Shown one piece after another: positions 26,251 to 57,554 of a stretch of DNA of 64,000 nt. Both the position numbers and the translations under genes were made by a program. A model generated the notes under the pieces. The model was not told the DNA's origin and made no database searches. It saw only the letters and a program-made list of their open reading frames with translations. Each line of letters begins with the position of its first letter. Position 1 is the stretch's first letter. This DNA is from Candidatus Latescibacterota bacterium (GTDB lineage Bacteria > Latescibacterota > UBA2968). Location: contig OZ242010.1 in assembly GCA_965204745.1 (NCBI GenBank), forward strand, positions 1,312,001 through 1,376,000, read 5' to 3'.

Positions 26251-26289
26251 CAGTTGTCAGTTGTCAGTTGTCAGTTGTCAGTTGTCAGT
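26251..26289. repeat. Heptamer tandem repeat (CAGTTGT)x5
   Basis: Direct reading. Confidence 0.9.
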
Positions 26290-28740: not shown

Positions 28741-28995
28741 AAGTAATCCAGTAATTTTTTTTCCAACAAAATAACATGCCCCGACGATCCAAAAATCGCC
28801 GGGGCGTGTGTTTTGGCGGATGGGCGGGGACTGACCACTTGGGCGGCGGGATTGCCTCCCCTCCCGTCTTACATCTTACGTCTCACGTCTTGCCTCTCAC
28901 TGGTGGATGGGCTGTTGGGCGGCCCTCTCCCGTCTCACCTCTTACCTCTCACTGGTGGATGGGCGAATGGGTGGGGACTGACCACTGACCACGAC

Positions 28996-29875: not shown

Positions 29876-30583
29876 ATGGTGGCATTAGAAAAATTGGCGA
29901 AAATTTGTGCCCAAAATCCCGCGTCCGTTTTGTTTGCGCGATTGGCGGATGGGTTGTTGCAACAGGGAGATGTTGCACGGGCACTGGCGGTTTGCCGCAC
30001 CGGAGTGCGATATCGACCGTCTTATGTGGCCGGGCAAGTGGTGATGGGCAAGTGCTATTTGGCCGCGGGTCAGTGCGAAGAAGCGCGGTTGGCGTTTGAA
30101 AAGGCGTTGCAGTTGGATGCGGACCACTTGGTTGCGCGCTGGCATTTGGGCCATATCGCGTTGCAACAGGGCCGAGGCGCTCTCGCGCTGGAGCACTTTG
30201 AATCGGCGCGGGCACGCGATCCCTTTGGCCCTGAACTCCGCGAGCAAATTTGCAAACTCAAGGGCGAACCGACCGAAGAGGCGCGAGATGAAACATCGAA
30301 AGCCCCACCCGATGAATCTGACGCGCCTGTTCCCGTATCCGAGTCGCTACCGCCTCTCGCAGAGGAAGGGATTGAGGAACATTTAGACGCGCTGATCGAG
30401 CCGCGCAACCCAGCGCCGAAATCCGACGCGCCGCTGATCGCAACCGCAACACTGGCCGAACTCTACGCCAATCAAGGGTCGATTCAAGAGGCCATCGCGG
30501 TTTTGGAACAGATGCTCGCACGCGAGCCAGACAATAGGCGCGTGATCGCGCGGTTGGACGAGTTGCGAAATTTGCCGGAATAG
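29876..30583 (+). CDS. Tetratricopeptide repeat protein
   Basis: NPASVLFARLAD, TPR helices, C-terminal TATLAELYANQG...AIAVLEQML. Confidence 0.85.
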   Translation: MVALEKLAKICAQNPASVLFARLADGLLQQGDVARALAVCRTGVRYRPSYVAGQVVMGKCYLAAGQCEEARLAFEKALQLDADHLVARWHLGHIALQQGRGALALEHFESARARDPFGPELREQICKLKGEPTEEARDETSKAPPDESDAPVPVSESLPPLAEEGIEEHLDALIEPRNPAPKSDAPLIATATLAELYANQGSIQEAIAVLEQMLAREPDNRRVIARLDELRNLPE

Positions 30584-30617
30584 GCGACCCACCCATTCAT
30601 CTTTTTTGGAGTGCATC

Positions 30618-31361
30618 ATGAGTGCTGAAAATCAGTATGACGCGATTGCCGAAGCGTATAAAAATTCCAAGCAACTGCCCTTTCGGGAATATATCGAAGC
30701 CCATACGCTTTTTGAGATTTTGGGCGACATCCGCGGGGCAAGCGCGTTGGACTTGGCTTGCGGCGAGGGGTTTTACACGCGCAAGATCATGCAGGCCGGG
30801 GCACGCGCAGTGACCGGCGTGGATATTTCCGCAGAGATGATCAAGTTGGCCGAAGCAGAAGAGCGCGTCCGGCCTTTGGGGTGCGCGTACTTGCATCGAG
30901 ATGCGGCGGACTTGGATTTGACCGAACAGGTCGATCTCGTGGTGGCGATGTACCTTCTGAATTACGCCAAGACGCCTGCGGATCTGTTGCGCTTTGTCGA
31001 GGTGGCGCATCGCAGTTTGCGACCAGGGGGCCGCTTTGTCGGGTTCAACGACAATGTTCAGAATGTGCCGCAGAGCACGGTTTCCTTTCCGCAATACGGA
31101 TTTGACAAGACGTGTGCCAACGCGCCGCAAGAGGGCGATGTGATTTTGTACCGGGTGAAAAATGCGGATGGCACGGTGTTTGAATTTGAGAATTATTATC
31201 TCAAACCCGATACCTATCACTGGGCGTTCCAACGCGCTGGATTCGCCGATTTTCAATGGGTCGGCCCGTTCCTCCACCCGTCTCAACAGGGCAATCCCCA
31301 TTGGGATGCGTTCCTGTCGCACGCGCCAGTCATTGGCTTTTGCGCGGTGAAAACTGTCTGA
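30618..31361 (+). CDS. Class I SAM-dependent methyltransferase
   Basis: LDLACGEGFY, GVDIS, LRPGGRF; stop TGA lies inside the downstream palindromic element. Confidence 0.92.
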   Translation: MSAENQYDAIAEAYKNSKQLPFREYIEAHTLFEILGDIRGASALDLACGEGFYTRKIMQAGARAVTGVDISAEMIKLAEAEERVRPLGCAYLHRDAADLDLTEQVDLVVAMYLLNYAKTPADLLRFVEVAHRSLRPGGRFVGFNDNVQNVPQSTVSFPQYGFDKTCANAPQEGDVILYRVKNADGTVFEFENYYLKPDTYHWAFQRAGFADFQWVGPFLHPSQQGNPHWDAFLSHAPVIGFCAVKTV

Positions 31362-31636
31362 ATCGCGGATTAAACGGATTACGCAGATGAACGCGGATTG
31401 GGTTGGCAGGTAGAACAGAGGGCGCAGAAAATACAGACGCCGCAAGTGGGCAGAGGACGCGGATTGGGCAACGCAGGTGGGACAGAGAATGCAGAAGGCA
31501 CGAAGGACATAGCGGCGGTAGGGCGGTGGGGGGATCTCACCTCTTACCTCTTGCCTCTTACTTGGGGATAGGGCTTGCGAGGGGTGGATAGGTAATCCGC
31601 GCAATCTCCAAATCCGCGAAATCCGCGATTCAGACA
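31355..31636. repeat. Palindromic spacer element copy A (282 bp)
   Basis: TGTCTGAATCGCGGATT ... AATCCGCGATTCAGACA perfect 17-bp IR with sub-terminal CGGAT/ATCCG repeats. Confidence 0.85.
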
Positions 31637-31648
31637 AATGGACCATCC

Positions 31649-34600
31649 ATGAATAACAACATCAGAGAGCAAATCGGGCATGCCTTGGGCGCGCTGGCGG
31701 ATGGGGATTTTGTGGTGGGGGCGCGAGACTTGCTCGCGGTGCTCGGTTATGAAAGCACGCGCACCTTAGACATCTCGGGCAAGGTGAATGAGTTTATTGC
31801 TCAATTCCCCGCGCCAAACGAGAACACGCAGACCGAGCAAGTGTTCTGCGAGAACGCCCAATCCGTGCGGATTCTCTTTCAAGTGACGGATACGGAAATC
31901 GCGGCGCAGAATACGCTGTTTGACACGAACGATTTTGACACGGGCAATGCGCGGAGTTTCTTGTTCGCCGCCGTCGAACTAAACGGCAAAACCTATTCGC
32001 GCGGGCAATACGCCACATTTACTCGCGAGATCAACAAGCGGATACACACGCCGACCGTGGTGCTGTTCAAGACCGCAACCGATCTGTTGACCCTATCCTT
32101 TGTTCACCGCCGCGAACACAAGCGCGATTCCAACCGCGATGTGCTCGGCCATGTGTCGCTGATCCGAGAGATCGATCCCATCAAGCCGCATCGCGCTCAC
32201 TTAGATATTTTGTCCGATTTATCGCTACCGCAACGGTTGGCGTGGATGGACGCCCACGACAAGCCGCACAATTTTGATGGCCTGTTGGCCGCTTGGCTCA
32301 ACGCGCTGGATACCGAAGCACTGAACAGGCGGTTCTACGGGGATTTGTTCGGCTGGTTTGAATGCGCCATCCGCGAGGCCCAATTCCCGTCTTCTCGTCA
32401 GAAGCGGACGTTGCCACCTGAAGAACATATCATCCGCTTGATCACTCGGTTGATGTTCGTTTGGTTCATCAAGGAAAAAAGATTGATCGCAACGGATCTG
32501 TTCATCGAGGATCAGATCGCCAGGTTGCTGAAAAACTATGACCGCGACGCGGGCGATTCGTATTATCGCGCTGTGTTGCAAAATCTGTTTTTCGCTACGC
32601 TCAACACCGAGAAAAACAGACGCGGTTTTAGCCAGGGGAGCAACGCCACGCACCGCGATTTCTCCCGCTATCGGTACGAGAACGAGATCGCTGACCCCAC
32701 CCAGTTGCTCGACCTGTTCGATCAAACGCCGTTCATCAATGGCGGCCTGTTTGATTGCCTCGACAGCGAGGCGGGCACCCGCGCTGGCGGCTATCGCATC
32801 GACTGTTTCACCGACACCCCCGGTCAACGCCGCGACTATTCTATCCCCAACCGCCTGTTTTTTGACCATGACGGGCTGATTCCCCTGTTCAACCGCTACA
32901 AGTTCACGGTGGAGGAGAACACGCCTGTCGAGCAAGAAGTCGCGCTTGACCCCGAGCTTCTCGGCAAGGTGTTCGAGAATCTCCTCGCCGCGTACAACCC
33001 CGAAACCCGCGACACCGCCCGCAAGCAAACAGGCTCGTACTACACGCCGCGCCCTGTGGTGGATTACATGGTGGATGAGGCATTGGTCGCGGCGTTGGCT
33101 CAAGCGTGTTCGCCAAGCGATGCCGACACAGGGTTTTGGCAAGATCGGTTGCGCTATTTGTTGGACTACGAGGATGCGTTCAACGACGCCCATGAACTGT
33201 TTGAAGAGGATGAAACCGCGGGCATTGTGCGGGCGATTTCCGAGATTAAAGTGCTCGATCCTGCGGTCGGTTCCGGCGCGTTCCCGATGGGCATGTTGCA
33301 CAAGATGGCGATGGCCTTGCGTCGCCTTGACCCGGATAACCAACGCTGGGCCACCTTGCAAAAAGAACGCGCTCGCGCCAAGGCAGACGCGGCGTTTGAT
33401 ACGAAAAATCAGCGAGAACGCGATGCCGAGTTGCTGGCGATCAGCGAGATCTTCGAGCGGTATTCGGGCGACTTTGGGCGCAAGTTGTATCTGATTCAAA
33501 ACAGCATTTTCGGCGTGGATATTCAGCCTATCGCCACGCAGATCGCCAAGTTGCGATTTTTCATCTCCCTCGCCATCGAGCAAGAGCCGGACGAGAACGC
33601 GCCCAACTTCGGCATCAAGCCCTTGCCCAATTTGGAAACGCGCTTTATCGCCGCGGATACGCTGATGCAACTCAAGGCCGCGGATCAACTGGACTTGTTC
33701 CGCCAACAAATTGAAGCCCTGCAAACAAAACTGACGGAAAACCGCGAGCGACATTTTCACGCGACCACGCGCCCGAAAAAACTCGCGTGCAGAGATGCGG
33801 ACAACCAGTTGCGCCGCGCATTGGCAGACGAACTCAACTCTGCCGGCCTTCCCGAAGATGATGCGAAGAAAATCACGCATTGGGATCCCTACGACCAAAA
33901 CGCCAAAGCCGACTGGTTCGATCCCGAATATATGTTCGGCATCGCGGACGGGTTCGACATCGTGATCGGCAATCCGCCGTATGTCGAGTCGCGGAATAGC
34001 TTGTTGTCGGCTGAACAGAAAACATCCTATTGCAACCGAGTTCTTTCCGATTGGGGAGAAACACTCCCGCGTGGCAGTGATCTGCTGATTTACTTTTATG
34101 CCCGTGCCGCAAAACTATTGTCCGAGACCGGCTGTGGTTGTTTTATTACGCAAAACGCTTGGCTCAGTACCGACTATGGGCAGAAATTTCAAACATTCTC
34201 CATTGGAAAATTCTCATTCGAGAAAATCATCGACACTTCCGCCAAATTTTTTTTGGACGCCAAAAGCCAAAATATCAATGCGGTCATCACACTTTTTACC
34301 CCGAAACCGTTGCAGACCATAGAATACGGAATCGCCAACAGCGATATGGCGATGGCCTCAAAAAGACATATTGCCGCCCGACAAACGATGAAGTGGGGGC
34401 ATCTCTTTGCCATGCCGCCATTCTTCGCAGATATATTGACAACAATGGCTACCAACGCCGGCGCGGGCAATACGATCACCTTCGGACAAGGGCTCAATTT
34501 TCCCTTGAAGAAACGCAACGAGTTGGATGCCGATGTGCCCGTCATTGTCAAAGCCGCCCAGTTTGTCGCGGTTTCGGCTGACGACAAAATCGGGAAAGCG

Positions 34601-35104
34601 TTGGTTTCATCTCGCAGAAAAGACAAAATTCCAGCCCTCATTCTGCCGCGTGGAATCGGCAGTAGGCACTATTGCACCTTTAATTTGTGCCGAGCATTTT
34701 CATACAGCCATGTGGAACTCTATCTCCCCGATGACCTTTGGGAATCCGATTTGCACTATTGTCTATGGGCGTACCTGAACTCATCGTTTGTCTGTCTTTT
34801 CCGAGAGATTACGGGGCGGAAAAATCTCGGTGGCGGTATGTTGAAAGCCGAAGCAACGGACATGAAGGCGTTGCCCGTCAATTTTGACTTTGATTTCGCC
34901 GCAGATGCGAAGGAGGTTTTTGACACTGTGACGCACCGAGCACCCTTGCCCATAGCAGAGGAAGTGACCACGCGAGCGCATTTGTCGCTCGATGACATGA
35001 TTGCCGACTACTTCGGCTTTCGAGGACTAACAGAAACAATTAGACAGACCCTCGTCGAACATGTCCATTTCCGGGTCGACAGAGCACGCGCCCAAAGTGT
35101 CTGA
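31649..35104 (+). CDS. Type IIG/Eco57I-like N6-adenine DNA methyltransferase
   Basis: PFINGGLF, DPELLGKVFENLL, GSYYTP, VLDPAVGSGAF, GVDIQ, IGNPPY, C-terminal TRD. Confidence 0.92.
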   Translation: MNNNIREQIGHALGALADGDFVVGARDLLAVLGYESTRTLDISGKVNEFIAQFPAPNENTQTEQVFCENAQSVRILFQVTDTEIAAQNTLFDTNDFDTGNARSFLFAAVELNGKTYSRGQYATFTREINKRIHTPTVVLFKTATDLLTLSFVHRREHKRDSNRDVLGHVSLIREIDPIKPHRAHLDILSDLSLPQRLAWMDAHDKPHNFDGLLAAWLNALDTEALNRRFYGDLFGWFECAIREAQFPSSRQKRTLPPEEHIIRLITRLMFVWFIKEKRLIATDLFIEDQIARLLKNYDRDAGDSYYRAVLQNLFFATLNTEKNRRGFSQGSNATHRDFSRYRYENEIADPTQLLDLFDQTPFINGGLFDCLDSEAGTRAGGYRIDCFTDTPGQRRDYSIPNRLFFDHDGLIPLFNRYKFTVEENTPVEQEVALDPELLGKVFENLLAAYNPETRDTARKQTGSYYTPRPVVDYMVDEALVAALAQACSPSDADTGFWQDRLRYLLDYEDAFNDAHELFEEDETAGIVRAISEIKVLDPAVGSGAFPMGMLHKMAMALRRLDPDNQRWATLQKERARAKADAAFDTKNQRERDAELLAISEIFERYSGDFGRKLYLIQNSIFGVDIQPIATQIAKLRFFISLAIEQEPDENAPNFGIKPLPNLETRFIAADTLMQLKAADQLDLFRQQIEALQTKLTENRERHFHATTRPKKLACRDADNQLRRALADELNSAGLPEDDAKKITHWDPYDQNAKADWFDPEYMFGIADGFDIVIGNPPYVESRNSLLSAEQKTSYCNRVLSDWGETLPRGSDLLIYFYARAAKLLSETGCGCFITQNAWLSTDYGQKFQTFSIGKFSFEKIIDTSAKFFLDAKSQNINAVITLFTPKPLQTIEYGIANSDMAMASKRHIAARQTMKWGHLFAMPPFFADILTTMATNAGAGNTITFGQGLNFPLKKRNELDADVPVIVKAAQFVAVSADDKIGKALVSSRRKDKIPALILPRGIGSRHYCTFNLCRAFSYSHVELYLPDDLWESDLHYCLWAYLNSSFVCLFREITGRKNLGGGMLKAEATDMKALPVNFDFDFAADAKEVFDTVTHRAPLPIAEEVTTRAHLSLDDMIADYFGFRGLTETIRQTLVEHVHFRVDRARAQSV

Positions 35105-35155
35105 ATCGCGGATTAAACGGATTACGCGGATGAACGCGGATTGGGTTGGCAGGTA
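35098..35155. repeat. Palindromic spacer element copy B (left arm only)
   Basis: TGTCTGAATCGCGGATTAAACGGATTACGCGGATGAACGCGGATTGGGTTGGCAGGTAG; supplies the MTase stop codon. Confidence 0.85.
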
Positions 35156-35275
35156 GAGAGAAGAAAGTGAAATGTAGAGGACGCGAGTCGTGCAGAGAAA
35201 GTGAATGAAAGCGATTTTAGGGGCGTGGTCCCCGTGCCCGCCCAAGGATAATGACACGACAGGGAGTTCTGTAGC

Positions 35276-35560
35276 ATGGATATTGGATTTATATGGGACG
35301 AAGACAAATATCGAGAAGTGCAAAGAAAGCATGATGTCAAGTTTTACGAGGTGGTTTTCGCATTTGATGACCCAAAAGGATACGAAACCTTAGATCCAGA
35401 AGGCCATGAAGATCGGTGGATGTGGGTAGGCGCAACAGTTAATGGTCGGGTGTTGGCTGTGATCTGCTCCGAAGAAGATGCCCCACTCTATCGCCTTATC
35501 ACCGCATTTGATGCAGAAGGGAGATTTCTCAATGAGTACTCCAACAGAAGTGGAATTTGA
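35276..35560 (+). CDS. brnT: BrnT family toxin (RelE-fold RNase)
   Basis: FIWDEDK...KHDVKFYEV...FDD...EDRWMWVG...GRVLAVI...RLITA. Confidence 0.85.
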   Translation: MDIGFIWDEDKYREVQRKHDVKFYEVVFAFDDPKGYETLDPEGHEDRWMWVGATVNGRVLAVICSEEDAPLYRLITAFDAEGRFLNEYSNRSGI

Positions 35561-38500
35561 TTATCAAACGTATATGAAGGAAAACACCCCCGAAATTTAT
35601 CGTGGGCCAGAGGCGCGTCGAAAAAGACGAGAGGCCGCCAGAGCGCGGGTTTTTCCAAACAAGACCCACATCGTTCGTGCCGCCGACCTCGAACAATATG
35701 CGAATAGCATAAACAGCCAAACCGTAATACCAGAATTGATCTACTTGCTTGTAAAGCAGTCTATCTCTAATGCCTCTGTGTGCCGCATTCCCTACGGAGA
35801 CGCTGTAAATCAAAGCGGTTGGGATGGGATCGTTGAAGCTGAATCGGCGTTTCTCGAGTTCGTCCCGGATGGCAGATCGTACTGGGAGATCGGCACCGGA
35901 AACGATCCGCAGGCCAAGGCGACCAAAGACTTCAAAAAGAGAACAAGCCAACTCTCCGCCGATGATCGGGCCCAAGGTTCATTTGTTTTTGTGACTCCTC
36001 GTTTCGCTGGGTGGGGAGCACCGGAACAAATAAGGTGGCTGGAACGCAGAAAAGATAAAGGTTGGAAAGATATCCGCATTATCGACGGCGTTAAGCTCGC
36101 CGATTGGTTGCGGGAATTTCCCGCCGTGGGCCAGTGGATGGCAGGAAAGATAGGCTTGTCGAGCAACTCAGGTGTGATTTCTACTCCGAGGGAGCATTGG
36201 GAAAATATCGTCTCTCTGACTAAACTGGGCGATCCCCCCATTCCACCAACACTATTCACTGAAGGGCGTAGCCATGCCTGCAATGCGCTTCAGGCACTAT
36301 TCGAAGGCACCTCGCAAAAGTTGCAGTTGTTGATGTTTGCAGAAGGCGAGCAAGATGTCGCCGATTTCGTTGCAGCTTACATTGAGACTCTTGATGAAGA
36401 TACCGCAAGAGATTACGCCAACCGATGCCTCTATATCGCTGAAGAAGACGCTTGGCGTACGGTTGTAGAAGTTCGGAAATCACATGTTTTGGTCGCTAAT
36501 CCTCGGCTCAATTTGGAGTCGGACGAGCGAGCCGGTCTCCTAACAATCGCCACGCGAAAAGGACACGCGGTCATAGTTCCTCTTTGCGGTGCATTTGCAA
36601 GGGGAAATTCTGAGATCATCAAACTACAAAGTCCATCTCAACTCCAGATAGAAAAGGTTCTGAAAGAGGCAGATTACTCGGATGTACGCTCGCGAGAACT
36701 AGCGGGCATTGGAGGTGATCGACTGTCCGCTTTACTCAGAAACTTACGTGGTTTTGGGGCTGTGCCGCCCTATGCAAAATGGAAAAATGCGAGACTCATT
36801 GCACAGGCAGGGCTCGCCGGAAAGTGGGATGGAAAAAGCGCGGCAGATCGGGAGGCTTTGGAGAGTTTGTTGAAAAAAGAATATGGGGAGTGGATCGAGA
36901 CACTGAGACCTGACGCGCTTCGCTCGGACTCTCCCCTGATTCAACGCGATGAAAAATGGCGATTCGTCGTGCGGGGGGAAGCATGGAGCGCGTTGGGGAA
37001 CAGAATAACGGATGAAGACCTCAATCGGCTCGAAGAGACTGCCGTTGCCGTTCTAGGGGAAAGAGATCCAGAATTTGACTTGCCCAAAGAGAAACGATTC
37101 GCGGCGAGCATTCACGGCAAACAACTGAAACATTCCCGTCTGCTCCGCGAAGGCATGGCAGAAACACTCGCTCTTGTAGGCAGTCGCTCAGAAGCACTTT
37201 CCGAGTGTTCGTTTAGAAAAGCCGAATACGTGGCTGTTCGCACCGTCCAACGACTTTTGGCGAGTGCGAAATGGGACCGCTGGGCGAGTTTGGATTCGCT
37301 GTTGCCACTTCTCGCTGAAGCGGCTCCCAACGAGTTTCTCGCCGCTGTCGAGTCAGCATTGGTGGATTTAGACCAATCTCCATTTCACGAGGTTTTTGCC
37401 CAAGAAAGCAGTGGAGGCATAGGAGGGGGGAACTACATGAGTGGCCTATTGTGGGCTTTGGAAACCCTTGCCTGGCATCCAGATTTCCTTTCTCGGGTAG
37501 CCGTTATCCTATCCGACCTCGCTTCGATTGATCCCGGAGGGAATTGGGCAAATCGGCCGTTTAATTCCCTCTTCGATATCTTCTTACCTTGGCATGTGCA
37601 AACGAGTGCCTCACTCGAGAAACGAAAGGCAGCTATCAAAAACGTGCTCCAAAAGCAACCAGAAGTAGGTTGGCAGTTAATTCTAGGTCTATTACCACAC
37701 AATCATGGTTTCACTATTGGATGCCATCAACCGACTTGGCGGGACTACATTCCGAGAGACTGGAAGGATGATGTCTCGGGGGCAGAGTATTGGGAACAAA
37801 TAACGATTTACACCGAAATGGCAATAGAACTCGCAAAGACGAGCACTGAGAACCTGGGCGAGTTGATCAACTGTATGTCCGATTTACCCAACTCTGCACT
37901 CGATAATCTTCTAGAACACTTAGCCTCAGAAGAGGTCGTAGCTTTGCCCGAGGCTGATCGCGTTTTAATCTGGGAAAGGTTAGATGGTCTAGTGCGCCAA
38001 CACCGAAAATTTGCGGACGCTGAGTGGGCAATGCCGAAAGGCACCATTTCAAGAATTGAGACTGTGGCAAATACCTTGGCACCCGAGACTCCAGTACGGA
38101 AATATTGTTATCTATTTAATAATCAAGGTTTTGATCTTTTTTTTGATGATACGGAAAATTACGAGGAACAAAAAAAACGCCTTGATAAAGCTCAACGGGA
38201 TGCTGTGCAAAAAATTCTCGATACAGGAGGCGTGTCTGCTGTACTGGATTTCGCTCAGAGTGTTGCTATACCTGGCAAAGTTGGAGATGCTTTGAGTAGT
38301 ATCGAAAATGAAGATATTGAGGTGGAAATTCTTCCGTCTCTGCTTAATACTGAAGACGAAACCGCAAAGCGGGTTGTATCTGGATTTGTTCAGGGACGAT
38401 TCCAGAAATCGAGTTGGACTTGGGTTGATCAAGTTCTCGGGAACTCTTGGAACGACACCCAGAAAAATGCGTTCCTAATTTTGCTTCCATTTGAGGATGG

Positions 38501-39467
38501 CGTCTGGAGTCGAGTAGAAGAACACCTCGGCAGAGAGAATGAGAGGCTCTATTGGCAAAAGGTCGCCGTAAATCCGTTTGAACCAGAGCGAGACTTGACT
38601 TTGGCGATTGAGAAGTTGCTCGAATATGAACGGGCTCCCGAAGCTGTCCTTTGTGTTTCTCGCACCGTCAACGACAGAGAAAGATCTAAGGAAGACCTTG
38701 CAATTCGAGCACTTCTCTCGGTGCTGGAGAAGTCTGATGTGGATGTTCAGCTAGATCAATATCAGACTGTCGAGGTGATAAAGTGCCTTCAGAAATCCCC
38801 CTCCGTTGACCGAGAAGTTCTTTGCGAGATTGAGTGGTGCTTCCTATCAATGTTGCGTTTCTCAACCGGATCACCCGTTACACTCGAAAGTCGTCTTGCT
38901 TCGGAGCCTGCCTTCTTCGCTGAGATCGTCGCTTACGCCTTTCGTTCAAAGAACGAGGCTGAAAGCGACGACGAACCGAGCGCAGAAAGGAAGGCGACGG
39001 CCATGAATGCCTACAGACTTCTAAACGAATGGAGAGGGTGCCCCGGCAAACTTTCCGATGACGCCTTTAACAAAAAAATATTCACGAATTGGTTGAATGA
39101 GGCCATGCGAATTACGAAAGAGACCGGTCACAGTGAGATCGCTCAGAATCGGATCGGCCACGTATTGACAAATGCACCCAAAGATCCCAACGGCCTATGG
39201 ATACATCGAGCAGTCGCGTCGGCATTGAACGAAAGAGACGCAGGAAAAATGCGTTCTGGCTTTACGATTGAGCTTTACAATCAGCGAGGCGTCCATGGCT
39301 TCACTGCCGGAAGAGAAGAGCGAGAACTGGCGCAACGAAATCGCGAAAAGGCAGAGGCCCTTGAAACAGCAGGTTATTCGAGATTTGCAACTGCAATGCG
39401 CGAGTTTGCAAGGGGCTATGAACGAGATGCGGAACGTGATGCACAGAGAAGCCCATTCGAAGAGTGA
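35532..39467 (+). CDS. 1311-aa protein: antitoxin-like N-terminus + Mrr-like PD-(D/E)XK nuclease + degenerate STAND NTPase + helical region
   Basis: Overlaps brnT 3' end; GWDGIV...SYWEIGT...KATKDF, FVFVT, IIDGVKLADWL; LFTEGR with no intact Walker A; lower GC than flanks. Confidence 0.75.
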   Translation: MSTPTEVEFDYQTYMKENTPEIYRGPEARRKRREAARARVFPNKTHIVRAADLEQYANSINSQTVIPELIYLLVKQSISNASVCRIPYGDAVNQSGWDGIVEAESAFLEFVPDGRSYWEIGTGNDPQAKATKDFKKRTSQLSADDRAQGSFVFVTPRFAGWGAPEQIRWLERRKDKGWKDIRIIDGVKLADWLREFPAVGQWMAGKIGLSSNSGVISTPREHWENIVSLTKLGDPPIPPTLFTEGRSHACNALQALFEGTSQKLQLLMFAEGEQDVADFVAAYIETLDEDTARDYANRCLYIAEEDAWRTVVEVRKSHVLVANPRLNLESDERAGLLTIATRKGHAVIVPLCGAFARGNSEIIKLQSPSQLQIEKVLKEADYSDVRSRELAGIGGDRLSALLRNLRGFGAVPPYAKWKNARLIAQAGLAGKWDGKSAADREALESLLKKEYGEWIETLRPDALRSDSPLIQRDEKWRFVVRGEAWSALGNRITDEDLNRLEETAVAVLGERDPEFDLPKEKRFAASIHGKQLKHSRLLREGMAETLALVGSRSEALSECSFRKAEYVAVRTVQRLLASAKWDRWASLDSLLPLLAEAAPNEFLAAVESALVDLDQSPFHEVFAQESSGGIGGGNYMSGLLWALETLAWHPDFLSRVAVILSDLASIDPGGNWANRPFNSLFDIFLPWHVQTSASLEKRKAAIKNVLQKQPEVGWQLILGLLPHNHGFTIGCHQPTWRDYIPRDWKDDVSGAEYWEQITIYTEMAIELAKTSTENLGELINCMSDLPNSALDNLLEHLASEEVVALPEADRVLIWERLDGLVRQHRKFADAEWAMPKGTISRIETVANTLAPETPVRKYCYLFNNQGFDLFFDDTENYEEQKKRLDKAQRDAVQKILDTGGVSAVLDFAQSVAIPGKVGDALSSIENEDIEVEILPSLLNTEDETAKRVVSGFVQGRFQKSSWTWVDQVLGNSWNDTQKNAFLILLPFEDGVWSRVEEHLGRENERLYWQKVAVNPFEPERDLTLAIEKLLEYERAPEAVLCVSRTVNDRERSKEDLAIRALLSVLEKSDVDVQLDQYQTVEVIKCLQKSPSVDREVLCEIEWCFLSMLRFSTGSPVTLESRLASEPAFFAEIVAYAFRSKNEAESDDEPSAERKATAMNAYRLLNEWRGCPGKLSDDAFNKKIFTNWLNEAMRITKETGHSEIAQNRIGHVLTNAPKDPNGLWIHRAVASALNERDAGKMRSGFTIELYNQRGVHGFTAGREERELAQRNREKAEALETAGYSRFATAMREFARGYERDAERDAQRSPFEE

Positions 39468-39540
39468 CCCGCCTCATTTCTGAGATCACCGCTACGAATC
39501 AGTGCTCGTTTGTCTGCTCATTGACTGAAAGGACTGAAAA

Positions 39541-40020
39541 TTGGAGATACAGATTTTGAGCGTATATGCAGATACGTCTGTTTTCGGGGGCGCATTCGAT
39601 GAAGAATTTGAGCAAGCCAGTCAGTCCTTTTTCGATATGGTTCGACGGGGGGATTTTAACCTGCTAACATCTGTCGTGGTGCAAGAGGAAATTGAGCATG
39701 CACCTGCGAAAATTGGAGAGCTCTTTGACGAGATGCTCAATTTTGCAGAAATTGTAGAGATTTCTGAAGGTGCTTTGCAACTCCAGCGATCTTATTTAGA
39801 TGCAGAAATCGTAACAAAAAAGTGGGCAACAGACGCGCTCCATGTTGCGTTAGCCACTATCGGGGAGTGTTCTATGATCGTAAGTTGGAATTTCAGACAT
39901 ATCGTGCATTTTTCAAAAATTTCGCTCTACAATGCGGTCAACACCCGTTCTGGCTACTCAAATATTGCTATCCATTCTCCTCAAGAGGTGATTGACTATG
40001 AAGACGAAGAAGACTTTTAA
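39541..40020 (+). CDS. PIN domain protein (VapC-like)
   Basis: VYADTSVFG, EEI, DALHVALA, IVSWNFRH. Confidence 0.88.
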   Translation: MEIQILSVYADTSVFGGAFDEEFEQASQSFFDMVRRGDFNLLTSVVVQEEIEHAPAKIGELFDEMLNFAEIVEISEGALQLQRSYLDAEIVTKKWATDALHVALATIGECSMIVSWNFRHIVHFSKISLYNAVNTRSGYSNIAIHSPQEVIDYEDEEDF

Positions 40021-40177
40021 TTGTGTCGAAATGAAACGGCGTGGTGCGAAAATAATCCACGACCAAATCGCAACTCTGACGCCCAAAGAGCAGCTAATTT
40101 TCTGGCAGAAACGCAACGAGTTGCTAAAAAAGCGTCAAAAAAAAATAAAAACGAAGTATAAGAATTCTGCGGATTAA
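39998..40177 (+). CDS. Small basic protein, probable antitoxin partner of the PIN gene
   Basis: Overlaps PIN stop; KTFNCVEMKRRGA...LTPKEQLIFW pattern. Confidence 0.65.
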   Translation: MKTKKTFNCVEMKRRGAKIIHDQIATLTPKEQLIFWQKRNELLKKRQKKIKTKYKNSAD

Positions 40178-40298
40178 GCGGATTAAGCGGATGAACGCGG
40201 ATTGGGTTGGCAGGTGGCGCAAAGGACATAGCGGGTGTGAAGGGCGGTGGGGTTAATCCGCGCAATCTCCTAATCCGCGAAAATCCGCGATTCAGACA
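40169..40298. repeat. Palindromic spacer element copy C
   Basis: GCGGATTAAGCGGATTAAGCGGATGAACGCGGATTGGGTTGGCAGG ... AATCCGCGATTCAGACA. Confidence 0.85.
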
Positions 40299-40343
40299 AG
40301 GGACTGACCACTGCCGAGGCGGTGTTTCTTGAAAGGAACTTTG

Positions 40344-40661
40344 ATGACAGCCCAAACAAAGACAGGTGCCGTTGCGAATATCGTCAGTGAGACCCTGGCG
40401 CAACGCTTCGGAGACGAGTTTGTGTTTGACCCAATTATCGTAGAACCCGAAATAGACCGCGATGGCGAAGAGTACCTGCACATTACCATTGTATTCGACG
40501 GGAACCAGAAACACCTGGACCCAGAATGGACCGCTGGCCTGCTCGGGCGGATTTTTCCAAAATTGATAGAACTGGGAATAGACGATTTCCCAAGCAAGTC
40601 ATTTGTGGAGAAGTCCGAATGGGAGGCACTCCAAAAAGGAAGGTACTTTGAACCCGCGTGA
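40344..40661 (+). CDS. Small protein upstream of HEPN, MNT-like antitoxin candidate
   Basis: Coupled to HEPN gene; acidic DRDGEEYLHITIVFD beta-strand pattern. Confidence 0.55.
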   Translation: MTAQTKTGAVANIVSETLAQRFGDEFVFDPIIVEPEIDRDGEEYLHITIVFDGNQKHLDPEWTAGLLGRIFPKLIELGIDDFPSKSFVEKSEWEALQKGRYFEPA

Positions 40662-41124
40662 TCTGCTGAGAATCGCCAGACAATTGGCACGCGGGCCCAA
40701 CAGAGGTCGCCCCCGAGAAGCCAACCTGAGACGGGCTGTGAGTGCCACCTATTACGCGCTGTTCCACGCGCTGGCAACCTGTTGCGCCGACATGCTAGCT
40801 GGCACGACCAGAGCCAACCGCAGCCAACAGGCATGGCGGCAAGCATACCGAGCATTGGAACACGGATACGCCAAAAGCCAATGTCTGAATCAATCTGTTA
40901 TGACCAGGTTCCCGGCAGAAATCCGGAAATTTGGTGAAGTGTTCGTAGATATGCAAAGGCAGCGGCACCGCGCCGACTACGACCCTGGCGCGACATTCAC
41001 CCGTTCAGGCGTCCTACTACGCATTGAAGAAACCGAGAAAACCATAAAGCAGTTTGAGCGCACAACGCCAAACGACCGCCGCGCATTCGCCATCTACGTA
41101 CTGCTTAGATTCAGAAATGAGTAA
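40648..41124 (+). CDS. HEPN domain protein (UPF0332-like)
   Basis: RRAVSATYYALFH and RHRADYD motifs; TTG start. Confidence 0.8.
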   Translation: MNPRDLLRIARQLARGPNRGRPREANLRRAVSATYYALFHALATCCADMLAGTTRANRSQQAWRQAYRALEHGYAKSQCLNQSVMTRFPAEIRKFGEVFVDMQRQRHRADYDPGATFTRSGVLLRIEETEKTIKQFERTTPNDRRAFAIYVLLRFRNE

Positions 41125-41167
41125 AAAAATCCTGCCAATCCTCAAATCCCAAATAAAGGATGTAGCG

Positions 41168-41313
41168 AACACAAACGCCGTAAGTAGGGCAGAGGACGCG
41201 GATTGGGTAGCACAGGTAAAACGAAGGGTGCAGGTGGTACGAAGGACATAGCGGTTGTGGGGAGCGGGGTAATCCGTGAAATCCCAAAATCCGCGTAATC
41301 CGCGATTCAGACA
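41168..41313. repeat. Palindromic spacer element copy D (right arm + internal blocks)
   Basis: GGGCAGAGGACGCGGATTGGG, GAAGGACATAGCGG, AATCCGCGATTCAGACA. Confidence 0.8.
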
Positions 41314-41324
41314 AGAAAAATAAA

Positions 41325-41555
41325 ATGCGGAACATCAAAGCCAAATTTTTTGAAGGCGTGCTCATACCGCAGGAGAAGCTCGACCTCAAAGAAGGTGCGG
41401 ATGTGGTCATAGCCATCACTGCCCCGCCGGATCGCACACTTGAGACGCTGCGAGCAACAGCGGGGGCATGGAAGGGAACACATGATCCAGAAGCATTGAA
41501 ACAGGCCATCTACGCTGGCCGGCGCACTCTTTCTCGGCCTCAACCAAAGTTGTAA
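41325..41555 (+). CDS. DUF104/AF2212-like antitoxin
   Basis: IKAKFFEGVLIPQEKLDLKEGADVVIAI. Confidence 0.8.
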   Translation: MRNIKAKFFEGVLIPQEKLDLKEGADVVIAITAPPDRTLETLRATAGAWKGTHDPEALKQAIYAGRRTLSRPQPKL

Positions 41556-41558
41556 TGT

Positions 41559-41675
41559 ATGCAATATCTCGTAGATACAGATTGGGTCATTGACCACCTA
41601 CACGGGCGCGGGAAACTGTCTGAATCGCGGATTAAACGGATGACGCGGATGAACGCGGATTGGGTTGGCAGGTAG
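41559..41675 (+). pseudogene. vapC-like PIN toxin truncated after ~19 codons by the palindromic element
   Basis: MQYLVDTDWVIDHLHG (first PIN strand) runs straight into TGTCTGAATC at 41617. Confidence 0.75.
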
Positions 41676-41840
41676 GGCAGAGGGCGCAGATGACACAGAC
41701 GCCGTAAGTAGGGCAGAGGACGCGGATTGGGTTGGCAGGTGACGCGAAAGGCATAGCAGATCGGAAGGACACAGCGGGTGTGGATGGGTGGGTTTTTAAT
41801 CCGCGTAATCCCCAAATCCGCGTAATCCGCGATTCAGACA
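41617..41840. repeat. Palindromic spacer element copy E (224 bp)
   Basis: Both 17-bp IR arms present. Confidence 0.85.
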
Positions 41841-41930
41841 AGGGGCGATCACAGCCCACTGACCACTTGATCAGGATAGCGCAGTTGCCTTCTCCCCTCT
41901 CCCTTCTTACGTCTCACCGATGTTTTACTA

Positions 41931-41957
41931 GGTCGTGTTGACATTTTATTTTTTTAG
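41931..41957. mobile_element. Isolated IS427-type MITE terminus
   Basis: TA|GGTCGTGTTGACATTTTATTTTTT identical to ends at 10935 and 12434. Confidence 0.65.
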
Positions 41958-41973
41958 CGTTATGGACTGATTA

Positions 41974-42791
41974 GGTTCTGTTGACATTTGGGATATTTTG
42001 AGTTACTCTGTGTGTATGTCAAACCTTATTCTTTCTGCGAACCAGTGGCCTAAAATTCTCGCATTCATCCGCGAATGCCCTCGCGTCTATGTCGGCGAGG
42101 AAGCCGGTTGCAAACGCTTCATTGAAGCGGTTCTGTGGGTGATGCGCTCGGGTGGTCAGTGGCGTCAGTTGCCCGCACAGTACGGGAAGTGGAACACAGT
42201 CTATAAACGCTTTGCTCGCTGGTGCCGGTATGGCGTGTGGGAACGCATGCACCAGCATTTTACGTCTGATCCAGACTTGGCATGTCTGATCATTGACAGC
42301 ACTGTCGTGCGTGCTCATGCCTGTGCAGCGGGTGCCTCAAAAAAAAAGGGGGGCAAGCCGCGCAAGCCCTCGGCAAGAGCCGAGGCGGGTTCAGCACCAA
42401 AATCCATCTCTGCACAGATGCGCGTGGCCTCCCGCTCCGGTTTCGACTCACACCGGGACAAACCCACGATATCACGCAAGCCGAAGCGTTAATCGCTGGG
42501 TATGAGAGCCGATCTGTCATCGCGGATAAGGGCTATGATTCACAAGCGTTTCTGGACGTCCTTTCTCACCATGGACAGGTTGCCGTGATTCCGCCCCGGT
42601 CTTATCGCAAGACCCCGCGTGATTATGATCGCCATCGGTATAAGCAACGCAATTTGATTGAGCGGTTGATTGGAAAAATGAAGCAGTATCGCAGGATATT
42701 TGCTCGCTTTGAGAAACTCAGCACGAGTTATCGAGGCTTTCTCGCTTTTGCGGCCACGCTCATCGCTCTAAAACAAAATGTCAACAGAACC
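41974..42791 (+). mobile_element. IS5 family, IS427-group insertion sequence (818 bp)
   Basis: TA|GGTTCTGTTGACATTT ... AAATGTCAACAGAACC|TA; two-ORF transposase. Confidence 0.93.
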
Positions 42792-42794
42792 TAA
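42016..42794 (+). CDS. IS5/IS427 transposase expressed by -1 frameshift at the A-run/G-run (~42339-42353)
   Basis: orfA WRQLP..YGKWNTVYKRF..IDSTVVRAH..SKKKGG; orfB ADKGYD..YKQRNLIERL..RFEK. Confidence 0.9.
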
Positions 42795-42815
42795 CCACTG
42801 ACAAAGGACAATGCG

Positions 42816-43373
42816 ATGGTTTCCACTTCTGATTTTCGCACGGGCATGGTGATTCGCCTGAATGGGCAGCTTTTTTTTCTCACTGAGTTTGAGCATTTTA
42901 AGCCCGGCAAGGGGGCTGCGGTCGTGCGGACCAAACTCAAGAGCGTGCAGTCTGGCGCGGTGATCGACAAGACGTTTCGATCCGGCGACAAGGTGGATGA
43001 TGTGCGCTTGGAAAAACGCAAGAGCCAGTATTTGTACCAACAGGATGCGTTTTACATTTTTATGGATACGCGCACCTACGAGCAGTACGAAGTGCCCCAA
43101 GAGACCGTGGGCGACGCACAAAAGTTGTTGAAGGAAAGCGAGATGGTCGAGGTGCTCGTCGCCGAGGGCAATGCCTTGGGCGTGGAACTGCCCATTTTTG
43201 TGGCGTTGAAAGTCGATCAAACCGATCCCGGGCTGCGCGGAGATACGGCCACGGGCGGCACAAAGCCCGCGCGCGTCGAGACCGGTGCCACAGTACAAGT
43301 CCCGCTGTTTGTCGAGATTGGCGATGTGCTGAAAATCGACACGCGCACCCAGTCTTATGTGGAGCGGGTTTAG
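42816..43373 (+). CDS. efp: Elongation factor P
   Basis: KPGKG, PGLRGDTA, VPLFV, IDTRT..YVERV. Confidence 0.97.
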   Translation: MVSTSDFRTGMVIRLNGQLFFLTEFEHFKPGKGAAVVRTKLKSVQSGAVIDKTFRSGDKVDDVRLEKRKSQYLYQQDAFYIFMDTRTYEQYEVPQETVGDAQKLLKESEMVEVLVAEGNALGVELPIFVALKVDQTDPGLRGDTATGGTKPARVETGATVQVPLFVEIGDVLKIDTRTQSYVERV

Positions 43374-46188: not shown

Positions 46189-46632
46189 ATGAGTCTTGTA
46201 CTGACACAGCGGGAAGCCGATTCCCTTTTGAACCGCGACAAGCATTACATGGGAAACGAACAATTTTCCTTTCCCGGTTTGGGCGGCGCGTTGCGAATCC
46301 CGTTGTATTCCAATGATCGCCGCGAGGAATTTAGCTTGGACATCACCCGAGGGCGCATCGAACTGCGAAAGAATACGTTCCAAACACGGGCGCGACGAGT
46401 CGCGATTTTGGCGCGTGTCGATATTGGGGGTCCACCGCACCGCAATCCAGATGGGAGAGAAATTCCCTGCCCACACCTACATATTTATCGGGAGGGATAT
46501 GGTGACAAATGGGCGATACCTTTGCCTGATAACTTCAAAAATTATCGGGATGCGTGGCAGACCTTAATGGACTTCATGGATTATTGCCATGTGGTCACTC
46601 GACCCCCCATTCAGCCGGAGTTGTTCCCATGA
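46189..46632 (+). CDS. DUF6978-like protein
   Basis: LARVDIGGPPHRNPDG...PHLHIYREGYGDKWA. Confidence 0.7.
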   Translation: MSLVLTQREADSLLNRDKHYMGNEQFSFPGLGGALRIPLYSNDRREEFSLDITRGRIELRKNTFQTRARRVAILARVDIGGPPHRNPDGREIPCPHLHIYREGYGDKWAIPLPDNFKNYRDAWQTLMDFMDYCHVVTRPPIQPELFP

Positions 46633-47399
46633 TGATTCGAGAAATCGCTAAACTGGTCAATGAGTACACGCGCTGGTTGGGGGATAAAACCATTTTTAAG
46701 GAGATCGATACGGCTTGGGTCGAGATCACGACGCCGTATCTGGATCGGCATAACGACTGCTTGCAGATCTATGCGTGCAGGGAAGGCAATGGATTCGTTC
46801 TGACAGATGATGGTTATATCATCAATGATCTCATCAACTCGGGTTGCCCTCTCGATACGCCGAAACGTCGCGCATTGTTAAAGACAACGCTGGCGGGATT
46901 TGGCGTGCAGATGGCGGGAGATCAATTGACTGTCCACACCACGCGAGAAAATTTTTCGATAAAAAAACACAATATCATCCAAGCCATGCTATCGGTAAAC
47001 GACCTTTTCTTTTCAGCTTCTCCTTATGTCGCCAGTCTCTTTTTGGAAGATGTAACGAACTGGTTGGAGTCGTCGGATATTCGTTATACGCCGCATATCA
47101 AGTTCACGGGCAAGAGTGGTTACGATCACATGTTTAATTTTGTGATCCCCAAGTCTCGCAGCCAGCCCGAGCGCATTGTGCAAGCCGTGGCAAATCCTCA
47201 AAAAAATTCAGCGGAAGCACTCGTGTTCAAATGGCTGGATACCAGAGAAATGAGGTCGCCCGATGCCATGCTGTTTGCCTTTCTAAACGATAGCAATCTC
47301 AAAGTCTCGCAATCGGCGATTGGGGCGTTGGAAAATTACGATCTTAAACCCGTGCTTTGGTCACGACGAGAAGAATCCAGGGAGTTATTAGCGGCATGA
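46629..47399 (+). CDS. DUF1828/DUF1829 domain protein (C-terminal restriction-endonuclease-like fold)
   Basis: ITTPYLDRHNDCLQIY, LTDDG, GKSGYDHMFNFVIP; ATGA-coupled. Confidence 0.75.
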   Translation: MMIREIAKLVNEYTRWLGDKTIFKEIDTAWVEITTPYLDRHNDCLQIYACREGNGFVLTDDGYIINDLINSGCPLDTPKRRALLKTTLAGFGVQMAGDQLTVHTTRENFSIKKHNIIQAMLSVNDLFFSASPYVASLFLEDVTNWLESSDIRYTPHIKFTGKSGYDHMFNFVIPKSRSQPERIVQAVANPQKNSAEALVFKWLDTREMRSPDAMLFAFLNDSNLKVSQSAIGALENYDLKPVLWSRREESRELLAA

Positions 47400-48816: not shown

Positions 48817-48861
48817 ACTGACAACTGACAACTGACAACTGACAACTGACAACTGACAACT
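48817..48861. repeat. Heptamer tandem repeat (ACTGACA)x6
   Basis: Direct reading. Confidence 0.9.
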
Positions 48862-50497: not shown

Positions 50498-50618
50498 CCA
50501 CGAGCGGGGTATGTAGGGCCGACGCCCCGTGCTCGCCCAAAGAGACGAGAAGGCATGACACTGCGCCAAAGTCGAAACCACGCGGCTTTTGTCGCGTACT
50601 CTGAGAAAGGAGAATCAC

Positions 50619-53405: not shown

Positions 53406-53510
53406 GTAAGAGGTAAGAGGCAAGAGGCAAGAGGCAAGAGGCAAGACGCAAGACGCAAGACGCAAGAGGCAAGACGTAAGACGTAAGACGCAAGACGTAA
53501 GACGCAAGAC
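53406..53510. repeat. Heptamer tandem repeat G(C/T)AAGA(G/C) x15
   Basis: Direct reading. Confidence 0.9.
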
Positions 53511-53635
53511 GTAAAAGGGCCAAATCCACTGCGCGTTTCGATGAACGGCTGGCGCAGTTGTACCATCGTTCCGCTAATGAACTGACTCGAGAGACCGCCA
53601 ATTGTACACCGCTCCGCTGATTCGCATGTTGCCCC

Positions 53636-57451: not shown

Positions 57452-57554
57452 AGGCGGAGCAACCACGCTCTGACGAAAGCCCGCCCCTACCTGCTTATTG
57501 GGTGGCCGGGCCGGGACTGACAACTGACAATGCGAATAAAGCGTTGAATCCTTA

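Follow-up and report, generated by a model that had tools for sequence, protein, structure and literature searches.

The REP/BIME sequences of Enterobacteria and Pseudomonas are built of REP units, each a single hairpin of 20–40 nt, and the associated RAYT enzymes are Y1 transposases; roles in RNA processing, stabilisation or attenuation are known from REP, ERIC and Correia repeats. Integron attC sites measure 57–141 bp, carry the core sites RYYYAAC ... GTTRRRY and form arrays beside IntI, a tyrosine-recombinase integrase, and clusters of attC sites without an integrase are referred to as CALINs.

The repeat family described here behaves like the intergenic repeats of bacteria that are grouped as REP/BIME and MITE: it lies outside genes, its units may be solo, in tandem or inverted, it combines with other modules and it has housekeeping as well as accessory genes for neighbours. 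As in REP/BIME, the palindromic units are short, form mosaics with other motifs, often stand just after genes in co-oriented units and show no target duplication; the present unit, however, measures 45 nt and consists of arrayed 9-nt sub-repeats with a 17-nt tip that is conserved. Like MITEs (such as Correia/NEMIS of Neisseria, ERIC and cyanobacterial Nezha), the elements are non-coding, 90–440 bp long, multi-copy and bounded by terminal inverted repeats (with TG...CA ends in this case), insert at gene ends, donate stop codons, lie near starts and have been seen nested inside another MITE, whereas their inverted repeats are unusually long and composed of sub-repeats, and they have neither a consistent target-site duplication nor a parent IS (see below). 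Their likeness to attC sites and CALINs consists in imperfect palindromes placed 3' of co-oriented, often toxin–antitoxin, genes, with stops at one end and the next start just past the other, but IntI is absent, the ends read TGTCTGA/TCAGACA, the length reaches 282 bp and solo arms stand by housekeeping genes. ORF-bearing hairpin cassettes (GxxExxY genes in inverted repeats and, as far as the available part of the source describes them, 23S rRNA intervening sequences with an ORF) similarly hold a small gene between long inverted arms of ~9-nt units; in the present case, by contrast, arms flank either large restriction–modification (RM) or toxin–antitoxin (TA) genes or nothing, outside any rRNA context. 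We consider it probable that a small, non-coding foldback repeat family of REP/BIME- or MITE-like type marks the junctions of a patchwork island.

In the window (the whole 64-kb stretch of DNA that was analysed), the family sits in the spacers of an island whose restriction and toxin–antitoxin genes all point the same way. The exact 17-mer TGTCTGAATCGCGGATT has seven matches (31355+, 31620-, 35098+, 40282-, 41297-, 41617+ and 41824-) where 0.26 are expected, and none of 100 shuffles reaches seven. A profile made from 149 arms finds eight arms in the window, every one within 31355-41841, leaving 53 kb of the window without any. Together with the alignment, these searches bear out the preliminary description of five palindromic elements, which are real copies or fragments of a single foldback repeat; only copies A and E are complete foldbacks, B, C and D being fragments. 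The island and its elements, in order, are as follows:

30606..31361, + strand, class I SAM methyltransferase, UbiE/BioC-like; its stop TGA lies inside the tip of copy A
31355..31636, + strand, copy A, full foldback of 282 bp with arms at 31355-31400 and 31593-31637
31649..35104, + strand, type IIG (Eco57I-type) restriction-modification enzyme; its stop TGA lies inside the tip of copy B
35098..~35160, + strand, copy B, left arm only (35098-35142), followed by just a few bases from the first middle module
35276..35560, + strand, BrnT-family toxin gene; DNA 75% identical to the BrnT region of locus L047
35532..39467, + strand, 1311-aa protein whose start overlaps the brnT end
39541..40020, + strand, PIN_3-domain protein
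39992..40177, + strand, putative 61-aa ORF without a family match; its stop TAA lies within the sub-repeats of copy C
40169..40299, + strand, copy C, short foldback with arms at 40169-40203 and 40254-40299
40329..41124, + strand, two overlapping ORFs of 110 and 173 aa without a family match
41168..41314, + strand, copy D, right half: middle modules and right arm (41270-41314), without a left arm
41325..41555, + strand, AF2212-like (DUF104) small protein, starting 11 nt past the right tip of copy D
41559..41675, + strand, stub ORF that runs into copy E after 19 native residues (MQYLVDTDW...)
41617..41841, + strand, copy E, full foldback of 224 bp with arms at 41617-41661 and 41797-41841
41998-42492 and 42585-42794, + strand, IS5-family transposase split in two, at the island's right edge and immediately ahead of efp

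Some of the gene labels first given to the island need revision. The initial gene, which had been called an MTase, is a UbiE/BioC-like class I SAM methyltransferase that matches no DNA-methylase family; the label MNT-HEPN for the ORF pair at 40329..41124 is not borne out by any family match; the HEPN leads are weak and concern the second, 173-aa ORF (E 0.28 for a HEPN match in the PDB, and HEPN in 14% of the members of an Atlas cluster). The 1311-aa protein has no family match in Pfam, NCBIfam or PADLOC. With 19 native residues, too short a stretch for verification, the stub at 41559 is a plausible N-terminus of a putative VapC. The IS5 remnant was considered as a mobiliser and rejected, being located outside the elements and having no visible ends in common with them.

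The basic unit of the family is an arm of ~45 nt, in which two or three more sub-repeats, each of 9 nt and of the type CGGATT, GGGATT or CGGAGGA, come after a conserved tip, (T)TGTCTGAATCGCGGATT. The tip contains an AATC-GCG-GATT dyad, its 17 nt are strongly conserved across phyla and the 9-nt period of the sub-repeats is regular. A full element consists of two inverted arms (TGT...ACA) enclosing a mosaic middle of other short repeat modules, and those of the window end in TGTCTGAATCG ... CGATTCAGACA, with the termini TGTCTGA/TCAGACA. We collected 27 full foldbacks, all non-coding with TGT...ACA ends and 92–440 bp in length, and a single genome carries several copies. Five Poribacteria-type and window elements fold more stably than their shuffles (z -2.4 to -4.9), as does one Bacteroidota hairpin (z -13). 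The arms of a given element pair poorly outside the 17-bp tip.

All eight arms in the window are extragenic or at ORF ends, and the elements do sit at module boundaries of the co-oriented RM/TA island, as the preliminary description had it. Its account of the gene ends likewise holds: three stop codons fall in element sequence (31359-61, 35102-04 and 40175-77) and two starts lie just past right tips (31649 at 12 nt from copy A, 41325 at 11 nt from copy D). The left arm of copy C is without its tip (the first ~10 nt), and three left ends of the window copies share a 12-nt extension. Taken together, the truncation of some copies, the three ORFs ending within an element, this shared extension and the VapC-like stub point to insertions, deletions and exchanges at or between copies. 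The copies thus mark the patchwork of the island and would probably promote it, through recombination between repeats that may themselves have been spread by an enzyme encoded elsewhere. The family offers an explanation for a gene stub, for ORFs with odd ends and for assembly-prone spots of defence islands.

A scan of public genomes gave at least 123 loci (labelled L###; 80 long loci were examined), 109 of which are labelled Poribacteria among the matches listed. Its members are dispersed along the chromosomes of metagenome-assembled genomes (MAGs) from sponge-associated Poribacteria and Latescibacterota, with sites in one chromosome spread from 0.65 to 6.04 Mb; among the matches listed there are at least 154 distinct exact-tip arms, most of them solo or tandem, and inverted units also occur. 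Their neighbours include housekeeping genes (aconitase, MutS, GlnA, PurD, PdxJ, SerA, LipA, ThiD and dUTPase) as well as RM and TA genes. A literature search on intergenic repeats of Poribacteria found nothing on these repeats. We describe them as a new intergenic foldback family, from sponge symbionts that have received little study, and they should be of use for annotation.

This distribution bears directly on the integron-like capture that had been proposed for the island. That proposal survives in part, namely in the boundary position of the elements, the rearranged modules of another species, the homology breaks within arms and the occurrence of a nuclease gene between arms; it lacks support with regard to an integrase, attC ends, confinement to arrays and enrichment beside defence genes. 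No integrase or recombinase was found among the scanned ORFs of the window or in 339 ORFs of related loci (189 arm-adjacent and 150 control), and the attC core ends are absent, the termini being TGTCTGA/TCAGACA rather than RYYYAAC/GTTRRRY in full copies of 224 and 282 bp. Genes and copies are co-oriented as cassettes would be, but the modules hold 1–4 genes each and 3 of the 5 sites are fragments. Nor are the sites confined to arrays, since solo arms are dispersed over chromosomes near housekeeping genes. A repeat scattered in this way through sponge-associated bacterial genomes argues for ordinary repeat-mediated patchwork over integron-type capture.

It is also quite improbable, in our view, that the foldback is the dedicated site of some other, non-integron-integrase system that inserts, excises and reshuffles defence cassettes of a gene plus its site. 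The tight geometry at the window boundaries, with stops in left tips and starts 11–12 nt past right tips, would suit such a system and recurs elsewhere: a stop codon lies at -6 to +30 nt of the tip in 21 of the 62 arms whose tip faces a gene 3' end, and nine start codons lie 12–30 nt past tips. Single-chain RM genes (Type ISP, Eco57I) are also commoner directly beside arms (9/96) than elsewhere in the same loci (1/73; p 0.044, uncorrected for orthology), which a repeat landing plainly anywhere between genes does not predict. However, defence and mobile genes as a whole do not significantly exceed the local background (34/96 beside arms vs. 18/73 elsewhere in the same loci, p 0.18); many solo arms adjoin housekeeping genes, and solo arms show no bias of the tip towards a gene (30 vs. 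30). The mosaic, tandem and nested arrangements moreover resemble decaying repeats, and a recombinase is missing from the window and the 339 neighbouring ORFs.

In the partly syntenic L047, from another species, the homologous Eco57I-type and BrnT genes occur in a different order, with extra genes (TIR-TPR and Fic) between them and arms at the edges of these extra genes; this layout is in keeping with a capture site, and the family marks junctions where accessory modules differ between species. Between-species homology ends inside an arm in two pairs (L021/L072 and L071/L076), but breaks fall at the inner arm end or 30–180 nt off, with no single fixed point as a dedicated site would have. Of 212 ends of homology blocks, 21 fall no more than 60 nt from an arm, against 10.2 +/- 3.1 for random positions. 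This excess is confounded, since gene ends are where the blocks tend to stop and arms lie between genes, and since loci that overlap enter the count twice.

One genome carries a composite MITE with a nested 151-bp foldback in at least five copies of 91–99% identity, which indicates spread by copying. The 27 full foldbacks show no consistent target duplication (at least 2 nt of identical flank in 5/27, with no common length), which argues against a classical DDE transposase; their flanks are mostly T on the left and A on the right. Nor was a parent IS or autonomous element with these ends encountered, the 80 long loci showing no transposase flanked by an inverted pair of arms, so that mobility is itself something we infer. 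The Y1_Tnp genes of L015 and L045 were examined for a link to RAYT and set aside, since they are flanked by a different REP family and the nearest arm is ~750 nt away; the REP/RAYT analogy therefore comes without its enzyme here.

Arms are also retained at orthologous sites across species (L071/L076 and L033/L050), which suits mobile DNA and, equally well, a sequence that is old, stable or functional. One function that may be considered is that co-transcribed hairpins punctuate the RNA, serving between modules as signals for processing (of RNase III type), stabilisation or attenuation. All genes from ~28.8 to 45.8 kb and all five copies lie on a single strand, and an orientation shared with the genes by 5 of 5 copies (by alignment), expected of random insertion once in 16, leaves a strand-specific role possible. 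A role of this kind would explain both the fixed orientation and the position right after stop codons, where arms often begin within 30 nt of the stop; the stability of the foldbacks relative to shuffles, the orthologous retention and the placement of GxxExxY genes in the loops of inverted 9-mer arrays (4 of 6 plasmid genes from other phyla) are in keeping with it. On the other hand, Rfam gives no match in 30000-43000 at E up to 1, and promoter-like (6 vs. 8.6 expected) and terminator-like sites (14 vs. 14.8) are not enriched in 30500-42500. The poor pairing of arms beyond the 17-bp tip is more what one would expect of arrayed protein-binding units than of a conserved RNA stem, and the many solo arms are incapable of a long hairpin. 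We therefore regard an RNA-level role, predicted from sequence, as unlikely to be the principal explanation, though compatible with the repeat family that we favour.

The protein-binding counterpart, in which the 9-nt CGGATT units and the AATC-GCG-GATT dyad would be immobile recognition units for a regulator or a nucleoid- or partition-type protein, accounts for the regular 9-nt period, the cross-phylum conservation of the tip and the orthologous sites. We deem it very improbable nonetheless, because the arms are not linked to any candidate binding protein, 53 kb of the window have none, copy number and arrangement vary widely between species and the nested elements of 91–99% identity speak of copying.

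If the repeats are indeed spread by an enzyme encoded elsewhere, the best candidate would be the small GxxExxY PD-(D/E)XK nuclease, because its gene lies tightly between arms in other genomes. The preliminary description had called for a search for a nuclease flanked by the same repeat, and GxxExxY genes (PF13366 / TIGR04256) are bracketed in this way at three Poribacteria loci (L057, L077 and L080), whereas the window has arms but no such gene. In a Chitinophaga MAG (L084) a GxxExxY gene adjoins a tip, and genes for YhgA/Rpn-like Transposase_31, likewise a PD-(D/E)XK nuclease, are bracketed by arms in L022 and L060; these bracketed nuclease genes would also be consistent with a capture site. 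The arms on Bacteroides plasmids use CACGGAGGA-type units, as does one Poribacteria subfamily. A further proposal, which we would call a long shot, is that arms are the recognition and cleavage sites of GxxExxY nucleases and together with them make up a mobile system that spans phyla and has no integrase: its autonomous form would be the nuclease gene set between inverted 9-nt-unit arrays, with gene-less foldbacks and solo arms as derivatives, and nuclease-catalysed exchange from arm to arm would move defence genes (Type ISP/IIG, TA pairs) as cassettes between islands in sponge symbionts. Literature on GxxExxY and PDDEXK_3/PF13366 yielded nothing on these repeats or on such a hairpin cassette. 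GxxExxY is a very common protein family without a known function, which a causal link, if true, would supply; should it spread arms or move genes between them, this would constitute a cassette system that needs no integrase.

Copy E (224 bp) has no blastn match in plasmid and phage collections, a search in which the low-complexity filter may mask sub-repeats. The middle of copy A comprises two GCGGATTGGG..GCAGGT modules, one GGACATAGCGG..GGTGGGG module and a piece of a repeat from another family (31502-31579). The segment at 18742-18819, previously read as an internal fragment of the foldback family, matches this lodged piece (inverted, 92%) and belongs to that different repeat module. The companion claim that the family is not seen elsewhere in the 64 kb is correct for arms but not for the core GCGGATTGGG, which has one further occurrence at 63805, within coding DNA. 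CBDHDL010000021.1 contains tandem arrays that are mosaics with a second module. Many of the housekeeping spacers of the window are taken up by repeats of other families and by heptamer arrays, with the same succession of gene, repeat and gene.

The palindromic elements of the window are REP/BIME- or MITE-like foldback repeats, a new family of a familiar kind, and they mark the points where modules of a patchwork-like defence island join, junctions that they probably help to create. The repeat itself is real, as the preliminary description held: the 17-mer TGTCTGAATCGCGGATT, the conserved arm tip, has seven matches in the window (31355+, 31620-, 35098+, 40282-, 41297-, 41617+ and 41824-) where 0.26 would be expected, and none of 100 shuffles gave seven. 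A profile made from 149 arms, all distinct and taken from the window and related loci, places eight arms in the 64 kb, each within 31355-41841, and alignment puts all five copies in the single orientation claimed for them:

31355-31636, + strand, complete foldback (282 bp)
35098-~35160, + strand, left arm alone
40169-40299, + strand, foldback without the left tip
41168-41314, + strand, right half
41617-41840, + strand, complete foldback (224 bp)

The stop codons at 31359, 35102 and 40175 and the starts at 31649 and 41325 likewise lie where they had been placed. The stretch 18742-18819, previously read as an internal fragment of the arm family, instead matches a different module lodged in the first copy, and this module and its relatives are found elsewhere in the window without arms.

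An arm comprises ~45 nt, beginning with the tip (in most cases with a T before it) and continuing with two or three more 9-nt sub-repeats (of the types nnnCGGATT, nGGGATT and nCRCGGATT, with CGGAGGACA in one subfamily); a full element is an inverted pair of arms with the ends TGT...ACA, and its middle is a mosaic of other short modules that varies by subfamily. Single strands of the foldbacks fold more stably than shuffles (z -2.4 to -4.9), and arm-arm pairing within one element is patchy past the 17-bp tip stem.

Scanning a species-representative genome collection with the 17-mer returned at least 123 loci (numbered with L below), where ~70 chance matches would be expected collection-wide. 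Of the 123 matches listed, 109 carry the label Candidatus Poribacteria, and the remaining listed loci include Latescibacterota, Saprospiraceae and other Bacteroidota, cyanobacteria and one Patescibacteria MAG; the sub-repeat structure is present in most of the non-Poribacteria loci, and a few (e.g., L115) look like chance matches. The window has a G+C content of 55.7%, the median of the Poribacteria loci being 46.4%, and among the loci listed its element subtype is nearest to a copy in L064, from a Latescibacteria MAG. Among the matches listed, arm sites are dispersed along chromosomes (0.65-6.04 Mb on OZ244616.1), and the majority of the 154 distinct exact-tip arms in the listed loci are solo or tandem rather than full foldbacks. 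Orthologous sites keep their arms in some species pairs, and one genome holds 14 arms over 15 kb in a mosaic tandem with a second module. A 151-bp CGGATT foldback is also nested in a composite MITE of ~290 bp with inverted ends of its own (GAAGATTAATTTATTAATTCGGTAATT), seen at L025 4958-5247 with further copies in L027, L053, L083, L111 (OZ244616.1) and L035; one chromosome has at least five copies of 91-99% identity.

Of the genes beside the window copies, the enzyme at 31649-35104 is of type IIG, and the BrnT, PIN_3 and AF2212-like proteins are all borne out by family matches. The gene at 30606-31361 encodes a methyltransferase, which is UbiE/BioC-like and matches no DNA-methylase family; the proposed MNT-HEPN pair gave no family match, with weak leads to HEPN. 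The putative VapC-like stub starts at 41559 and retains 19 native residues. A 1311-aa protein (35532-39467), for which searches of Pfam, NCBIfam and PADLOC yielded zero matches, has a start that overlaps brnT, and the first ~100 nt of its gene share homology with the beginnings of TPR-protein genes downstream of brnT in L047 and L016.

The donated stop codons are a consequence of insertion or exchange close to the end of a gene, since the left arm closes any entering ORF, in all frames, within 57 nt. Where the tip faces a gene 3' end, the stop lies -6 to +30 nt from the tip in 21 of 62 arms, and the TGA of TGTCTGA serves as the stop in six of those 21 (one of the six belonging to a spurious ORF of the window). 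In nine arms, a start codon lies 12-30 nt past the tip; across 60 solo arms, the tip side and the inner side were nearer to genes equally often (30 vs 30). All three left tips of the window are preceded, inside ORFs, by ~12 similar bases (GCGCGG.GAAAC-like; GCGCGGTGAAAAC at 31342-31354, GCGCCCAAAG at 35086-35097 and GCGCGGGAAAC at 41605-41616), and the final codons of the genes for the methyltransferase and the type IIG enzyme, together with the break in the stub, may therefore have been copied from element-side sequence. The shared bases suggest that the window copies spread by copying or exchange extending past the tip.

Species comparisons (REARRANGEMENTS) covered L047 against the window, L021/L072, L071/L076, L057/L077/L002 and all usable pairs. 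L047, from another species, matches the window at 66% DNA identity in the Eco57I-type gene and at 75% in the BrnT region, and between the two it carries a mini-foldback, a TIR-TPR gene, a Fic-domain gene and another arm. In both L021/L072 and L071/L076, homology spans the flank, the tip and 25-35 nt of the arm, and then ends. A type I RM locus is common to L057, L077 and L002, with a differing hsdM-hsdS interval that has arms and a GxxExxY gene at one edge. The related species represented by L033 (5017-8191) and L050 (5017-5374) have an arm and its outer flank in common, and one of them is without nearly all of a Type ISP gene, of which only ~180 nt of the 3' end are left. When all usable pairs are pooled, homology blocks have 212 internal ends, of which 21 fall 60 nt or less from an arm, where random positions give 10.2 +/- 3.1 (3 of 2000 simulations reached 21); both gene ends and loci that overlap confound this test. 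For some breaks the distance to arms is 100-300 nt or more, and other breaks have no relation to arms.

We compared 189 ORFs directly beside arm clusters (one overlap duplicate removed) with 150 ORFs drawn at random from the remaining 543 in those loci; at Pfam E <=1e-8, 96 and 73 of these, respectively, had a match. The arm-adjacent defence/mobile families, a class that rests on our own labelling of families, were Type ISP (five), Eco57I-type (four), TIR-TPR, FRG, Mrr_N, Uma2, RAMP, AAA_15/21, HsdS, Schlafen/AlbA, YhgA-like and DDE transposases, and the ordinary genes beside arms included aconitase, MutS, GlnA, PurD, PdxJ, SerA, LipA, ThiD, dUTPase and transporters. Enrichment beside arms appeared for single-chain RM enzymes (9/96 vs 1/73; p 0.044, orthology ignored) and not for the defence/mobile class overall (34/96 vs 18/73; p 0.18 with the same loci as baseline, or 0.09 after removal of 2 of the 18 control ORFs that really lie between arms, lenient labelling raising the control count from 18 to 23). 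The arms thus inhabit accessory-rich neighbourhoods, without specificity for defence genes.

The preliminary description had likened the island to an integron, with the elements as capture sites. The likeness extends to the local geometry of the window elements and fails on the enzyme, the kind of site and the distribution over the genome. Neither an integrase nor any other recombinase was found in the window or among 339 scanned ORFs of related loci, no transposase lay between an inverted arm pair in the related loci, and 27 full foldbacks revealed no consistent target duplication. That the elements exchange cassettes has a low probability; this reading is kept alive by the fixed orientation of the window copies and the single-chain RM enrichment, both of which a plain repeat model leaves unexplained.

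Y1 (IS200-like) transposase genes (L015 4330-4930 and L045 6150-7190) are flanked by another REP family, of tandem units with a GC hairpin and TATGTCTATAGA, which directly adjoins arm tips in L023, L045, L102 and L107. The positive lead to an enzyme is a nuclease gene flanked by the repeat, GxxExxY (PF13366, TIGR04256): in L057, its ortholog L077 and L080, an arm lies 15-20 nt past the stop and a second 40-130 nt before the start. These are all three distinct GxxExxY genes of the long loci, a biased sample, as the loci were picked by their arms. In a Chitinophaga MAG, a GxxExxY gene adjoins a tip; the window itself contains none. Six GxxExxY genes on plasmids of six genera (L124-L129: Persicobacter, Bernardetia, Gemmatirosa, Treponema, Bacteroides, Fusobacteria), sampled independently of arms, gave a mixed but suggestive picture: four have inverted short sub-repeat arms at the gene ends, one has direct repeats and one same-strand AATCC arrays. 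The array sequence differs by lineage (distant phyla), and the Bacteroides plasmid arms are CACGGAGGA-type units, like those of one Poribacteria subfamily. PMC3424549 lists PF13366/PDDEXK_3 as of unknown function, with multiple transfers; searches of the literature for GxxExxY and PDDEXK_3/PF13366 gave nothing on flanking repeats, one mention of GxxExxY being as a reverse transcriptase neighbour.

Outside the arm island, at 46554-48604, a DUF1828/DUF1829 protein matching the PADLOC candidate PDC-M24B (E 1e-105) is followed by a Schlafen/AlbA_2 and HATPase_c_4 protein, judging by homology likely a second defence pair. Elsewhere, 10.9 in-frame copies of a 21-nt unit (50724-50951) lie within a coiled-coil, Lpp-like ORF (50589-51188). 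Many intergenic spacers are occupied by perfect or near-perfect tandem arrays of heptamers (ACTGACC, CAGTTGT, CGTCTTA, AAGACGC, CAGTAGT), often with an inverted partner (311-342, 659-728, 1859-1892, 3078-3110, 8121-8152, 26251-26289, 28865-28992, 48817-48861, 53415-53511 and 59141-59221), which resemble cyanobacterial STRR repeats. A second repeat family (412-616, 12747-13006, 20699-20904 and 57550-57626) is made of 75-151-nt units that are 84-94% identical and occur in both orientations, with CCCCTTCC..GGAAGGGG hairpins. The intergenic stretch 12613-12777 (165 nt) is 86% identical to 408-575 and 5804-5971 of L064; taken with the G+C content and the element subtype, this match hints at an origin of the window that may lie outside Poribacteria. 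Finally, the window contains four copies of a 35-nt repeat, ACTAGGTCGTGTTGACATTTTATTTTTT... (382-416, 10931-10965, 12430-12464 and 41927-41961), one of them adjoining the upstream side of a split IS5-family transposase (41998-42794).
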